NCBI GenBank assembly: GCA_031409855.1
Contig: JANNYA010000168.1
Span: 5,715-69,714 of the forward strand
Length of the DNA stretch: 64,000 bases
Direction of reading: 5' to 3'
Origin: Rhodanobacteraceae bacterium
Lineage (GTDB): Bacteria; Pseudomonadota; Gammaproteobacteria; Xanthomonadales; SZUA-5
The notes under the pieces were generated by a model that did not search any database, was not told the DNA's origin, and saw only the letters and a program-made list of their open reading frames with translations. Positions within the stretch are counted from its first letter, which is position 1; every line of letters starts with the position of its first letter. Positions 52,001-55,310 of the stretch are shown here, piece by piece. The translations under genes were made by a program, and so were the position numbers.

Positions 52001-54805
52001 GGGTTGTCCACCACTGCCACCTACAACAGCTTGGGCTATCGAAATACCGTTACCGACCCGGATCGCGGCACCTGGAAATTTTTCTACAATGGCTATGGCG
52101 AATTAAAAACCCAGTGCGACGCGCGCAGCAGCGGCACGTGCAGCAGTAGTAGCACGGGGCAGTATGTGACCAAGCTGAGCTACGACAAATTAGGCCGCGT
52201 GATCAAACGCGAATGGCAGGAACCTAATCGCGACAACCCTGCGCCCGGCCAATCAGTAGACTACACCGAAACGGTCGCCTTTGATAATTTAGGCAGCACA
52301 ACCTACGGCAATTTGCTCAGCACCAGCCGCGCTGGCCAGCGCAACAGCAATCAATCGATCGAACGTTGGTCCAGTACGCCGCAATACGATGCCCTGAACC
52401 GTGCGACCAGTGGCAGCACCAGTATGCAAATCGGCAACGCCCAGCCCACTGCGCTGCAAAGCAAAACGTTTTTTGATCGCCAATTTGGCCGCGTCAAGCA
52501 AGTGGTTTATCCCGACTCAGTGATCGATGGCGAACCGGTATCCACCTATATGACCTACAGCGCATCTGGCATCGCCAACCGCGAAGGCTTTGCGCAGGAT
52601 TATCGAGCGCCAACCTCCAGTGGCGCGCAGGAATCATCGGCCATTCGCGTTTTGAACGCTGTGGAAGGCCGCGGCTTAGCAACCAGCGTGCTCTTGGGGG
52701 AGGTCGGCACGCAAACGGTGGTGGATTACGAAAAAGGCGCACCTGTGCCGCCCGTATTGACCGCCTTCACCCGCGATTGGATGGAAACCAACCTTTATGA
52801 TAGCTCGGGCTGGCTCTTAGCGCGGTGCGTGAATCAGTTGGGCGGGTGCAATTCTTCGATGATTCCGGCTAGCGCCAGCAGCGATCCGCTCAATGAAGCG
52901 TTCCGCTATGACGTCTATGGGAACTTGAAGAAACATGTGCACGGTGGGGTATGGACGCCGACGCAAGTGACGGCGGCGGGCAGCCAAACGCACACCTATG
53001 ATGCGCTGCATCGCTTGACGCAAACTCAGCGCAGTGGCGCGACCAGTAGCGCAATGATCAACTATGCCTACAACGAGATTGGTGGCTTAAAGAAAAAGAC
53101 TGACTACTCCAGCGTGAGCGATAGCGCGTATCAGTACAACGCGACGACACACCAAGTCAGTCAAGTGGCCTTGAATACGGGCGGGATGGCGACTTACGCC
53201 TATGACAATAACGGAAATGTTAGCAGCCGCACGGAAAACAGCCTAACCACCACGCTGCAATACGATGTCAGCAACTTACCGAGGCGCATTAGCAAAAATG
53301 GCTTGATCAGCGATTTTTACGATGCCCCAGGCGGGCGCTACTGGCAGCGCATGAGCAGCAACGGGCAAGTCGTGCGCGATACGATTTTGCTAGACAAAAT
53401 GTTCGAGCGGGAAGTGGTAGGCGGTGCGGCAACGGTGGAGCGGTACTACATCGCCGGGCAATTGCTGACGATCAATCGCAACGAGGGTCGTAAGCTAGCT
53501 TACTTACATCAGGATCGCTTGGGTTCTAATGTGGCGATTAGCGAGAAGGCGATTTTGCCGAGTGGTAATATTGGCGCTGCCACGCCAATCATCGTAGAAA
53601 ATCGCGGCTTCGATGCCTTTGGTAAGGCGTTGGATGGCGGCTGGGGCACGTCGAATCAGGGTTGGCTGACCTGGAATGGCAGCGGCTTTAATCAAGGCAA
53701 ACGCAATCAGCGCGGCTTTACCGGGCACGAGCATTTAGACGAGTTCGGGCTGATCCATATGAATGGGCGGGCTTATGACTACAACCTGGGCCGGTTTTAT
53801 GGGGTGGATCCGTTTATTCAATTTCCGAGTAATTCACAGAGTTTGAATCCTTATTCTTACTTAATGAATAACCCGTTGGCGGGGACGGATCCGACGGGGT
53901 ATTTGATGTCCGAGGCCGATGGCGCTTGCCTAAGTGGCCCGAAATGGGTCTGTGCGCAGGCGCAGGGGAGTGCGGCGTATCGCAGTGGATATGCGTATAC
54001 ATCGCCCGCGAAGGCGTTGTTGGGCGGTGCTTCTTTGGCAACGGATCAGCTGCGTAAGTCAGCGAATGGTGCGCAGGATCAGCGGCTTAAGTCGGCGAAT
54101 GGTGCGCAGGATGGTCAGGATTCAACTCAGACTTCTAAAACGGATGGAAGCGGTAAAGGCGCATCTGGAATTGGCGGGCTAAGCTTTCGAAAAGCTATTG
54201 CGGGGGAGCGTGATCGGAATAGTACAAGCATCACGGCAAGTAAAAACCCGACAAAAAAACAAACTCAAGCGGTCGACATTGTGAATGCGTTGATTGACAA
54301 ATACACAGGGGCTATTCAAGCTGTTGGAGATGAAGAATTTAACGAAGTGATTGAAAACGTACAAATCTTTGTTCCTAAGAAAGCGTTTGAGAGAGTCAAG
54401 CGTACGGGAAGCGCAATAACAGTTGCTGACTCATTTGCTGAGATGCTTCAAGCGAGGGCCGGAGAGAAGATAGACTTCTTAAAGGGCCCGACAGGCCGAG
54501 TAATGCGGGTAGATCTTTCGATTACGGAAAACAGCTTAAATGATTTCGAGAGGTTATTTACGCTGCTGCACGAATATGCACATGGAATCAAGTCAAAAGA
54601 GAACTACAGGCTTTTTGAGTTGGACAACAGTAATGGAAAGAATTTCAGTAGCAAGACCTCAAAAACCGAAGAATTTGCCAGTAGAAGAGCTTTTCAAATG
54701 ATTCAAGCAATGGGCATAAAATTGGGTGATGCAAAAAAAATTAGGGATGTCGGTTACGACAATAGTGTTATGAACGGATTGCGAAACGAGGCCTATGATG
54801 AATAA
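46019..54805 (+). CDS. giant secreted TcB/TcC-like fusion (SpvB domain, FG-GAP propeller, RHS/YD-repeat shell, RHS core end, C-terminal HExxH toxin tip)
   Basis: GGGGAG RBS and ATG at 46019. Signal peptide MRSFARAVAAFLLLVSAVSLHAQS. SpvB signature PPGRRGMQPSVSLNYSSRAGNGIAGMGFSLS (about 47500-47590). Six FG-GAP repeats (GDLDGDG, FNRDGIADL, VNGDGLSDL, FDGDSALDI, LNGDGLLDL, YDSDGRMDL; about 48430-49410). Many YD repeats (YDTFGN, YDDLGR, FDGAGN, YDKLGR, YDVYGN, YDNNGN). Core end GRAYDYNLGRFYGVDP...NPYSYLMNNPLAGTDPTGY at about 53760-53902. Confidence 0.9.
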   Translation: MRSFARAVAAFLLLVSAVSLHAQSYTLGAPPLSACNASAPAASGNYAFNAGRWYSPQRLGPSWDFFFNDFGNLVAIWYGFNNQGHPVWYISEVKPLQTDSDGGQRWQSRLHRTSQVNGAPFLNEAVGELYVRIPANSPEKMVVSWNFLPNTNLNPTDVNDDKIDCIVRRVGEDTSSGNQRTVNTTYSGFWYPPSNSGWGYNALVVPPSTLNNNQWFEENTILVFDTVGQPAWGRVSRSTLSRPDGAMTVFSSSQPTVSYLTWKTATNVNGRVLNGPSTNITTPNLTFGRSYSSASSGNVYLTWSQMLTNPTNSSQRGINFNRGTPSTPFAVAKLTSTFGIVANPSPCQASAGQTTCQVEVDWEAVGAVLGRTGRPARRSVSVSPSGTVTSGNWTQLPTAEFQGSMMQSIPVGTRWQYGIVDFSVSPPYPLYFSSEVRALPADADIEIPDDPRSSTAAEYAQPSALVGDLAGATPMQADAEGAAASVNIPIQIPPGRRGMQPSVSLNYSSRAGNGIAGMGFSLSASSSISRCPQSLATDGQVNAVQFTNEDRLCLDGQRLIATVEGTYGLANAQYKTEIDSYVLVTQLGANLSDDGGIKGAVYFEVQTKSGERQYFGADQLGASIRNARVKPSGAMNGALNGATLSWLLDTRINRSGNYIQYGYTVFGSGENLLIAITYTGFGTDVGSRQVLFTYENRPDRSSSYLAGALNEQTQRLLNIQTKAPISDAPGTAAVVVRTITPSYSTSNYSGRSIMNSVQECFPGGQCMPAQKFSFASNRAPELNKKLSIGGVPIISEDPTATDYISSFSEIGDLDGDGSVEFGASVRRTNQSSYGTSYFFKSDANTRSFGMAQPAISLTGAAATHLQDTRGDFNRDGIADLLLVDSAGVLQVKFGKPDGTLEAQQPLILSPTAPTLPDARVSDVNGDGLSDLVLQYRLSNQTRLLVYVATSATSYTRVADQTVISDPNYQASIVQIADFDGDSALDIMLEDSIINLPPASFFPLAKTRVYFGALSGTSYTLATSSQDLNNLVPNFEASEKYAASFRRWGDLNGDGLLDLLTIPNSTRTWTIRLGLGRRTSLMGAPINTGSNRGTEQCRGGINAAPYCTPRMVERLSFTDYDSDGRMDLMAPRAFAARVCLWQHAEGMQFVEEGIKNRYLCPWDILTGADDIEANFTGQDPQRGGTEPRECLGLQHNLYGYCLRDIYGEKSDRAGFDPSSYYMDHIRFVQTGVSTFTVQVTNTSSIQNGAGDRGDSSDQDAFGDGLADRFSLFGYSYRAVPNVEPGCWDLCDDNHRLVTGLRALQLPRPSGATGPDPFPMTMPDGAGTIDTVLAQSGPFNYLSENRGAYVTGITPTTTGDPIQPDTLISVDNGNGMSYRWNYATLASNAGRTSGMPLYTVPARTPGGTSYADVNHFYFASSMPVVASFFQSNGTGSENETRFGYEEAMYNNKGRGFTGFRKIYTENVANKVRSATVYNQKFPLVSQPECSATQLISKPWTELTCTSTTALSLSNYTGYQCNGAVCDLLNPPLNSVFRITNIASATTVRDLTIPSQIVTSSSMDASYDTFGNMLSSTQTTTDKNSGGQTVRSITSTSTAVYANDAAQWWIDKQVRATSSVSQSYGKGNVGGSLTTPTRTTVMLMDYNSTNRQVQCEATIGLESGDPEPISTATCALPQVAVERKITRSFDNSYGNVTGESTTARDETEARSVSTSYSTSVGYFPNLVTDAFSKSISSRFDARFGVPISITDANGLISSTQLDVLGRVIKVTPPSKSGLKAGFPMVTAYERCGGTGGAFCSNADAKMRVISAQYGSPQAAVYLDSLGRSIRTASALLNSVPSYGTLSFSDTDKSVTETRYNPRGLVFTQYEPALAGPNSASLTEYTYDDLGRPLVKLQKFKNVSADDLNGVNAALQYRRTEYAYSGLSTTILVCQKAEAQALTGCVEGANNADLSPGLKMSRSFDSAGKLLTTVDALNKSTHYWFDGAGNPLQIVDVMGLSTTATYNSLGYRNTVTDPDRGTWKFFYNGYGELKTQCDARSSGTCSSSSTGQYVTKLSYDKLGRVIKREWQEPNRDNPAPGQSVDYTETVAFDNLGSTTYGNLLSTSRAGQRNSNQSIERWSSTPQYDALNRATSGSTSMQIGNAQPTALQSKTFFDRQFGRVKQVVYPDSVIDGEPVSTYMTYSASGIANREGFAQDYRAPTSSGAQESSAIRVLNAVEGRGLATSVLLGEVGTQTVVDYEKGAPVPPVLTAFTRDWMETNLYDSSGWLLARCVNQLGGCNSSMIPASASSDPLNEAFRYDVYGNLKKHVHGGVWTPTQVTAAGSQTHTYDALHRLTQTQRSGATSSAMINYAYNEIGGLKKKTDYSSVSDSAYQYNATTHQVSQVALNTGGMATYAYDNNGNVSSRTENSLTTTLQYDVSNLPRRISKNGLISDFYDAPGGRYWQRMSSNGQVVRDTILLDKMFEREVVGGAATVERYYIAGQLLTINRNEGRKLAYLHQDRLGSNVAISEKAILPSGNIGAATPIIVENRGFDAFGKALDGGWGTSNQGWLTWNGSGFNQGKRNQRGFTGHEHLDEFGLIHMNGRAYDYNLGRFYGVDPFIQFPSNSQSLNPYSYLMNNPLAGTDPTGYLMSEADGACLSGPKWVCAQAQGSAAYRSGYAYTSPAKALLGGASLATDQLRKSANGAQDQRLKSANGAQDGQDSTQTSKTDGSGKGASGIGGLSFRKAIAGERDRNSTSITASKNPTKKQTQAVDIVNALIDKYTGAIQAVGDEEFNEVIENVQIFVPKKAFERVKRTGSAITVADSFAEMLQARAGEKIDFLKGPTGRVMRVDLSITENSLNDFERLFTLLHEYAHGIKSKENYRLFELDNSNGKNFSSKTSKTEEFASRRAFQMIQAMGIKLGDAKKIRDVGYDNSVMNGLRNEAYDE
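53903..54802 (+). other. C-terminal variable (toxin) region of the Rhs-like protein, containing HEYAH
   Basis: Begins right after DPTGY. It has a Gly/Ser/Gln linker with a 33-bp tandem repeat, then a low-GC ~200-aa domain with LLHEYAHGI (HExxH, 54569-54583). Confidence 0.7.

Positions 54806-55310: not shown

Follow-up and report, generated by a model that had tools for sequence, protein, structure and literature searches.

A stretch of 64,000 nucleotides from a Rhodanobacteraceae bacterium (GenBank assembly GCA_031409855.1, contig JANNYA010000168.1, positions 5,715 to 69,714 of the forward strand), hereafter called the window, carries at positions 53903-55310 what we read as the variable C-terminal cassette and the cognate immunity gene of a Sec-exported SpvB/beta-propeller/RHS ('TcdB/TcaC-type') toxin, whose tip would be a zinc-dependent peptidase with its site of action in the cell envelope. 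We give this reading as a whole a probability of about 0.62, and its parts differ in strength. That the tip and the lipoprotein encoded directly after it form a toxin-immunity pair is supported, at the level of sequence, by the conserved adjacency of the two genes and by the finding that the partner outlives the toxin. The C-terminal domain is probably a small gluzincin, to judge from its motifs and predicted fold, without an assignable family. The novelty lies in the sequence families of the toxin domain and of the immunity protein; the logic of the system and both kinds of toxin are already known (PMC3482391, PMC6899460).

The toxin is the product of a giant gene on the plus strand (46019..54805; 2928 amino acids (aa) on translation), and this exact product is already recorded in a protein collection. 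The longest open reading frame (ORF) runs from a TTG at 45962 to 54805, and the true start is almost certainly the ATG at 46019, from which the translation opens with a predicted Sec signal peptide (46019..46084, plus strand, read off the translation), MRSFARAVAAFLLLVSAVSLHA, cleaved ahead of QS. Behind it come a N-terminal region of about 460 aa (46085-47460), SpvB (Pfam, 4e-13), an FG-GAP propeller (FG-GAP_3, 5e-14), TcdB_toxin_midN (4e-11), RHS repeats (RHS_repeat, 3e-13), the Rhs core and the toxin tip. The region of about 460 aa has no match in Pfam or NCBIfam and could be a receptor-binding or surface-anchoring module; neither PAAR nor any related Pfam domain was found in the 2928-aa protein. 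The Rhs-associated core ends in a block at 53714..53902 (plus strand; TIGR03696, 3.6e-15 in NCBIfam) that reads GFTGHEHLDE...RAYDYNLGRFYGVDP...NNPLAGTDPTGY, its DPTGY finishing at 53902. This core end is an autoproteolysis module, and it agrees with the PxxxxDxxG cleavage motif of Song et al. 2021 (PMC7861908). The class of SpvB/TcdB-TcaC RHS polymorphic toxins was defined by Zhang et al. 2012 (PMC3482391) with signal peptide, SpvB, propeller and RHS, and the window protein has the signal peptide, SpvB and propeller, RHS repeats ending in a core, a tip that is variable after the core motif, a partner gene directly downstream and an orphan cassette further on.

Beyond DPTGY lies a 300-aa tip that consists of a linker and a 209-aa domain with a HExxH motif. 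The linker (53903..54175, plus strand, 91 aa, G+C (GC) content 0.579) opens with a Cys pair (CLSGPKWVC) and includes a 33-nucleotide (nt) tandem duplication, LRKSANGAQDQ / RLKSANGAQDG (54043..54112, plus strand; Tandem Repeats Finder: period 33, 2.1 copies, 91% matches). The C-terminal toxin domain (54176..54805, plus strand) is a predicted small zincin-like metallopeptidase, as suggested by the one homologue found and by an AlphaFold2 model; its 209 residues (54176-54802) are encoded at a GC content of 0.42 and contain LFTLLHEYAHGIKSKE. The HExxH motif, HEYAH, occupies domain residues 132-136 (54569..54583, plus strand; alignment and AlphaFold2 model) within a predicted helix spanning residues 123-136. 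A candidate third zinc ligand of the gluzincin type is Glu165 (54668..54670, plus strand), which is invariant in the two-sequence alignment, belongs to a conserved TE..AS..AF block and stands 29 residues past the second His, at the start of a predicted helix (163-178). An earlier note on this DNA had described just such an arrangement, with the core ending in DPTGY, a linker and an AT-rich domain of about 200 aa bearing HExxH, followed by a gene of low GC that overlaps the stop by 11 nt and encodes a lipobox protein; coordinates and GC contents (0.579 vs 0.42 for the two parts of the tip, 0.417 for the gene) agree with it throughout. The linker, which it had called Gly/Ser/Gln-rich, is rich in all three residues (Gly 14, Ser 12, Gln 8), but the most abundant one is Ala (16).

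The partner gene, proposed to encode the cognate immunity protein (54795..55310, plus strand), specifies 171 aa, or 170 aa from a second ATG at 54798. Its ATG at 54795 precedes the end of the toxin stop codon at 54805, creating the 11-nt overlap (ATGATGAATAA), and a GAGG stands upstream. The product begins MMNKFLLCFFMLCLTGC..., and direct reading of its N-terminus (MMNK-FLLCFFMLC-LTGC) gives an n-region of positive charge, a hydrophobic h-region and the lipobox L-T-G-C with Cys17 (54834..54845, plus strand), which fits [LVI][ASTVI][GAS]C; the strict PROSITE lipoprotein pattern fails at position -4, which is a Cys. Under the E. coli rule, a Ser at +2 is no inner-membrane retention signal. The lipoprotein is probably anchored in the outer membrane, given its Ser at +2, and probably disulfide-bonded between Cys45 and Cys162. 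Its relatives comprise one 92%-identical cluster and one distant, 22%-identical homologue, and both bear on the function of the pair.

The distant homologue sits beside the only homologue of the toxin domain that we found, P0002. This protein is encoded on JGI contig L006, and a longer contig, L107, is 100% identical to L006 from nt 36 of the latter on. In L107 an unbroken 527-aa ORF comprises the Rhs core ending in ...NNPLAGTDPTGY, about 105 aa of linker with a Cys pair at its start, and the HExxH domain; the toxin is followed, with a 1-base overlap (TAATG), by a 187-aa gene whose product is a homologue of the lipoprotein (BLASTP E 5e-9, 22% identity). This 187-aa partner has a hydrophobic N-terminus, no lipobox, and both Cys residues (C45 and C162 in window numbering). 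Toxin-partner adjacency, translational coupling and export of the partner are therefore conserved across deep divergence. The two linkers are similar in length and composition and each has its own Cys pair (QCETGTRIC in the relative), with no alignment between them. The domains, in turn, keep LF..LHE[YF][AG]HG..SK.N, TE..AS..AF and AMG...DA.KI[RK]DVGY when the window and P0002 are aligned, and the HExxH motif is more than a chance occurrence because it falls in the best-conserved block of this sole homologue, LHE[YF][AG]HG. As a separate observation, the first 35 nt of L006 differ from L107 and put a stop 6 codons ahead of DPTGY; L006 may be either a true orphan cassette copy or an assembly artefact at the contig end.

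The 92%-identical relatives of the lipoprotein come from short metagenome contigs in six samples and represent at least two haplotypes (L001-L005 and L108), in which the toxin is no longer whole. In L001-L005 it is reduced to 39 nt at the HExxH motif (here HEHAH) and its last 100 nt or so, with 2-nt and 1-nt deletions; in L108 it is cut at window position 54707, with a 1-nt deletion in an A-run. The lipoprotein ORF is complete in both haplotypes, every indel lies outside it, and its ratio of nonsynonymous to synonymous substitution rates (dN/dS) against the window copy is about 0.30-0.34 (24 substitutions). A partner retained after the loss of its toxin fits an immunity gene, not an export helper. 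Both remnant haplotypes also carry 62 nt of this Rhs core (window 53066-53127) directly 3' of the lipoprotein gene (L001 1343-1404, L108 698-759; 93.5% identity), and the junction between the two is a GAGA microhomology. This layout looks like the trace of a past tandem duplication, or of a circular intermediate, of a unit that comprised the 3' end of the core, the tip and the immunity gene.

The toxin domain could not be assigned to a family. No family passed the threshold for the tip in Pfam, NCBIfam, PADLOC or among PDB sequences, where searches returned chance matches only (a designed toroid, HIV gp120). The best that Pfam offers is a sub-threshold M78/IrrE match at the HExxH motif (E 0.022, 15.0 bits vs a cutoff of 22), and P0002 gives sub-threshold matches to M60 (E 0.057, 13.4 bits vs 25.8) and M78 (E 0.22, 11.8 bits vs 22) at the same motif. 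Tox-MPTase1-5, Tox-HopH1, DUF4157/VgrG2b-Cter, M48 and M32 produced no match even at E<=1-5. The AlphaFold2 model of the domain, built on the two-sequence alignment, is moderate in quality (predicted local distance difference test (pLDDT) 65.5, predicted template-modelling score 0.71) and shows strands, the HExxH helix and two more long helices, the second of which starts at Glu165. Foldseek comparisons were non-significant throughout: 3c37 (E 1.4), Vibrio collagenase, BepA (template-modelling (TM) score 0.41) and IRAP in the PDB; in BFVD, an M48-domain protein (E 0.095, probability 0.72, TM 0.40), then more M48 and IrrE-like proteins. Metallopeptidases (M48, M9, M1, IrrE) nevertheless recur at the top of both libraries, all of them below significance. 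Kinship with M32 carboxypeptidases was considered separately. The pattern LFxxLHE[YF][AG]HG gave 92 metagenome matches, almost all of them M32 proteins sharing the motif only (tblastn, hhalign), and the relationship was rejected because the hhalign match spans only the 16-residue motif.

The family also appears rare. A word-indexed search of 5.8 billion cluster representatives with the tip domain as query found no match, the same kind of search with a two-sequence profile returned P0002 only, and an exhaustive HMMER scan of 1.84 billion representatives (50% clusters) recovered a single protein, again P0002 (E 7.6e-21, 35% identity). The window's own 2928-aa protein is the representative of its own 90% cluster, yet neither tip search returned it, which indicates that tips within long Rhs proteins are under-sampled through clustering or indexing; 'one homologue' therefore means one found, and the apparent rarity is an upper-bound impression. 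The pattern AMG...DA.KI[RK]DVGY had no match in metagenome contigs or species-representative genomes, a search of the latter for related loci via poorly conserved patterns found nothing, and tblastn against plasmids gave no match for the tip or the lipoprotein.

Composition and alignment both bear on how the cassette came to be where it is. The GC profile is visibly lowered between about 54100-54200 and 55300. At third codon positions the core has a GC of 0.60, and the domain (0.43) and the lipoprotein gene (0.415) fall clearly below it (p about 1e-6); the linker, at 0.54 over 91 codons, cannot be separated significantly from either side. Amino-acid composition combined with host or core codon usage predicts overall GC contents of 0.604 (linker) and 0.476 (domain), so that about 83% of the observed step between them is accounted for by composition, and L006/L107 show the same profile as the window tip. 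The step in GC near 54180 is genuine, yet protein composition explains most of it. Alignment with L107 places the break in homology elsewhere. The core end at 53714-53902 is the last block common to the two loci: 58 of its 63 residues are identical (92%; 82% in nt, L107 465-653), the core ahead of it is only about 25-30% identical, and after DPTGY there is no nucleotide similarity. Since similarity stops at DPTGY, the homology break lies at the canonical site, and the 63-residue core end may be a conserved 'handle' through which homologous recombination exchanges tips.

These results recast part of what the earlier note had proposed. Its unusual recombination boundary, some 280 nt past the DPxG motif, is not supported, given the break at DPTGY and the compositional origin of most of the GC step. 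Its swapped-in toxin-immunity cassette is supported as a pair, through the adjacency in the relative and the partner kept in remnants, and the swap into this particular core stays a suggestion: the whole Rhs element is a single island, and in the remnant loci core fragment and cassette have diverged equally from the window. Other elements stand. The tip belongs to no named toxin family, with Pfam, NCBIfam, PADLOC, PDB and profile searches all below threshold; the survey of homologues for adjacency that the note had suggested showed pair and overlap conserved in the relative (35% identity for the toxin, 22% for the partner); and action in the envelope is a reasonable proposal, as the partner proteins of both loci carry an export signal and share a conserved Cys pair.

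The gene lies on an Rhs island of 10,923 bp (45785..56707) inside a fatty-acid desaturase gene, 212 nt of which it replaces. Five metagenome contigs (L099-L103, 85-92% nt identity) carry a response regulator, an intact 302-aa desaturase and APH; they resemble the window as far as 45784 and again from 56708 on. Three more (L104-L106) likewise have no Rhs element. Across the syntenic contigs the desaturase lies between the response regulator and APH, or these two adjoin, and the Rhs gene is present in none. Fragments of the desaturase gene flank the island, 5' at 45514..45784 (plus strand, collinear with L099 11213-11483) and 3' at 56708..57133 (plus strand, collinear with L099 from 11696, with the His box HNNHHAFP). 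No integrase, insertion sequence element or flanking direct repeat was seen for the island. Its right part holds the orphan cassette, a remnant that combines PT-HINT (1.8e-28) with a tip of about 125 aa (55567..56707, plus strand). Because the island edge at 56707/56708 cuts the orphan ORF, it reads out of frame into desaturase DNA to 56859. No family matched the roughly 125 aa after PT-HINT, and this cassette has no immunity gene of its own. A cassette of this kind downstream is expected of a polymorphic toxin locus and favours our reading. Between the lipoprotein gene and the orphan cassette stands a near-perfect 20-nt inverted repeat with a 1-nt spacer (55480..55520, a hairpin), which has no T-run and where a simple terminator scan was blank; it may be a terminator without a T-run, not a classical intrinsic one. 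The DNA downstream of the lipoprotein gene showed no internal similarity to the Rhs gene within the window. The genes around the island have housekeeping roles and are those of a Gram-negative proteobacterium (type IV pilus genes, TonB, HrpA, gmk, pyrB, pyrC), with no type VI secretion system (T6SS) genes among them, and the large ORFs of the window yielded nothing resembling TcA, either as an ORF or as a domain. Beside the island there is a second, small strain-specific insertion (43266-44218, about 950 bp), missing from syntenic relatives, which holds a 266-aa ORF on the minus strand (43359-44159) with no Pfam family. Further upstream, at 30145-31371, a 408-aa FG-GAP repeat protein with a weak match to PliI (periplasmic lysozyme inhibitor) overlaps the end of a response-regulator/GGDEF/EAL gene.

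Set against known systems, the locus resembles several and coincides with none. With the TcdB/TcaC-class RHS toxins (PMC3482391) it shares the signal peptide, SpvB, integrin-like propeller, RHS and variable C-terminal toxin, as well as small HExxH alpha+beta tips, downstream immunity genes and orphan HINT cassettes. That catalogue lists the zincin tips Tox-MPTase1-5 and HopH1, gives no immunity partner for metallopeptidase tips, and has one lipoprotein immunity family (Imm65, with Tox-JAB-1); the window tip, in contrast, matches no Tox-MPTase or HopH1 Pfam model even at E<=1, and its partner is identified. A second parallel is the C-terminal domain of VgrG2b, described by Wood et al. 2019 (PMC6899460) as a metallopeptidase toxin that acts in the periplasm and is countered by immunity proteins of the PA0261 family, which are periplasmic, lipoproteins or membrane-anchored, and disulfide-dependent. 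Both systems have a HExxH toxin domain and a small gene directly downstream, and the partners of our family likewise have a lipobox (window) or a plain hydrophobic N-terminus (relative) and a conserved Cys pair; the periplasmic toxicity of VgrG2b is known, and that of the window tip is predicted. There is no detectable sequence relation between the two (DUF4157 is unmatched), and VgrG2b rides on a T6SS spike, whereas the carrier in the window is an RHS shell with a Sec signal and no T6SS nearby.

The minimal gluzincins M48 (HtpX/BepA-like) and M78 (ImmA/IrrE) share with the tip the HExxH motif, a Glu about 25-30 residues on and a small alpha+beta size, but the window matches lie below threshold (Pfam 15 bits vs 22; Foldseek E>=0.095, TM<=0.41) and membership is not demonstrable. 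In the T6SS Rhs effectors of enterobacteria, orphan rhs-CT/immunity modules are found, and orphan cassettes together with core fragments allow tip exchange. The window has the same GC-richer core, AT-rich tip and immunity gene, homology break at DPxG, and downstream orphan cassettes and core fragments; unlike those effectors, its protein has no features of PAAR, of VgrG binding or of a chaperone, is double their length and carries a Sec signal. The shell itself recalls the TcB-TcC cocoon of classical Tc toxins, with SpvB, propeller, TcdB_midN and RHS, a core that ends in an aspartyl autoprotease and PxxxxDxxG, and a variable region of 200-400 aa that in TcC is encapsulated after cleavage. It departs from them in having no TcA in 64 kb and in having a signal peptide, some 460 additional aa, an immunity-like partner and an orphan cassette. 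Classical Tc loci have been found without immunity genes (Song et al. 2021, PMC7861908), which sets the window element on the polymorphic-toxin side and not on the Tc side.

The mechanism that we propose joins these precedents. By analogy with Rhs proteins and TcC (PMC7861908), the tip would be cleaved off after DPTGY and kept inside the RHS shell. Once delivered, it would act as a small zinc metallopeptidase in which His132, His136 and Glu165 bind zinc and Glu133 is the catalytic base. The anatomy of the pair and the example of VgrG2b C-ter/PA0261 suggest that the target lies in competing Gram-negative bacteria, in their periplasm or envelope, and in the producer and its kin the outer-membrane lipoprotein, facing the periplasm, would bind and block the toxin. 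A bolder version of this scheme, in which a new zincin family attacks an unrecognised envelope target from a Sec-exported BC-type RHS cocoon that works without TcA or T6SS, the N-terminal 460 aa or so perhaps being a receptor or translocation module, is one that we consider rather unlikely.

Several observations weigh against our interpretation. No significant sequence or fold match links the domain to zincins (best Foldseek E 0.095 in BFVD, 1.4 in the PDB), and its model is only moderate (pLDDT 65.5, two-sequence alignment), while that of the lipoprotein is unusable (pLDDT 37.6). The family has two full members, which makes the conservation of HExxH and Glu165 statistically weak, and the dN/dS estimates are based on just 24 substitutions. 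On the side of delivery, no TcA, T6SS or dedicated type II secretion system occurs in the 64-kb window, and nothing in our model accounts for the entry of a Sec-exported shell of 320 kDa into the periplasm of another cell.

The rival explanation to which we give most weight keeps the toxin-immunity pair and changes its chemistry: the tip could be a zinc hydrolase of another kind (an amidase acting on peptidoglycan, say, or an enzyme that splits lipids or glycans), or it could attack membranes without being an enzyme, with a structural role for HExxH. The absence of any peptidase family over threshold, the non-significant fold matches and the confinement of M32 similarity to a 16-residue motif are all compatible with this, and VgrG2b, although a characterised zincin, lacks both a defined substrate and peptidoglycan hydrolase activity (PMC6899460). 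We nonetheless regard it as unlikely: the predicted strands, HExxH helix, conserved Glu 29 residues on and next long helix make up a gluzincin layout in the model, and the weak matches that recur are all metallopeptidases (M78, M60, M48, M9, M1). Another view is that of a Tc-like (BC-fusion) toxin directed against eukaryotes such as protists, insects or nematodes, whose tip cleaves a host protein and whose lipoprotein is an accessory for export, surface display or maturation, or an unrelated passenger. Its SpvB/TcdB_midN/RHS architecture is that of TcB-TcC, the tip, at 300 aa, has the length of the variable regions in TcC, which span 201-400 aa (PMC7861908), metallopeptidase tips of the HopH1/NleD type and others hit eukaryotic targets (PMC3482391), and no antibacterial delivery system lies nearby. 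We consider this distinctly doubtful, however. The window has no TcA; classical Tc loci lack an immunity-like partner (PMC7861908), whereas here toxin and partner vary together in two divergent loci; the partner stays intact after toxin loss, when an accessory export factor would be useless; and polymorphic toxin loci that act between bacteria typically carry an orphan PT-HINT cassette, as this one does downstream. Far less probable still is that the locus is an evolutionary relic, an inactive tip on a decaying island next to a lipoprotein ORF left intact by chance. The island is indeed strain-specific, it interrupts a host gene, its last part is a truncated orphan cassette, decay is visible in related loci, and the family is very rare in searchable data; but without selection an 8.8-kb ORF would be unlikely to remain free of stops and to keep its signal peptide, core motif and tip intact, and the lipoprotein shows a dN/dS of about 0.3 and no indels next to a toxin remnant of about 100 nt that is frameshifted in both haplotypes.

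The advance is incremental: the concept is established and the family seems narrow in distribution, and the pair itself is well supported and experimentally tractable. The catalogue of polymorphic toxins gains one toxin-domain family and one immunity family, neither of which had been classified before, and a metallopeptidase tip carried on an SpvB/RHS (Tc-like) scaffold has, for the first time, a candidate for its immunity partner. If the periplasm is where the tip acts, its substrate would reveal an envelope protein that is vulnerable, just as VgrG2b pointed to cell division. Should the BC-type cocoon prove true, a Tc-like shell that delivers a periplasm-acting toxin into neighbouring Gram-negative bacteria would represent an undescribed route. 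A Tc-like shell with a Sec signal and an immunity gene, and without TcA, offers a clean test case for the delivery of Rhs toxins independently of the T6SS, a problem that recent surveys have not settled (bioRxiv 10.1101/2025.05.08.652813).

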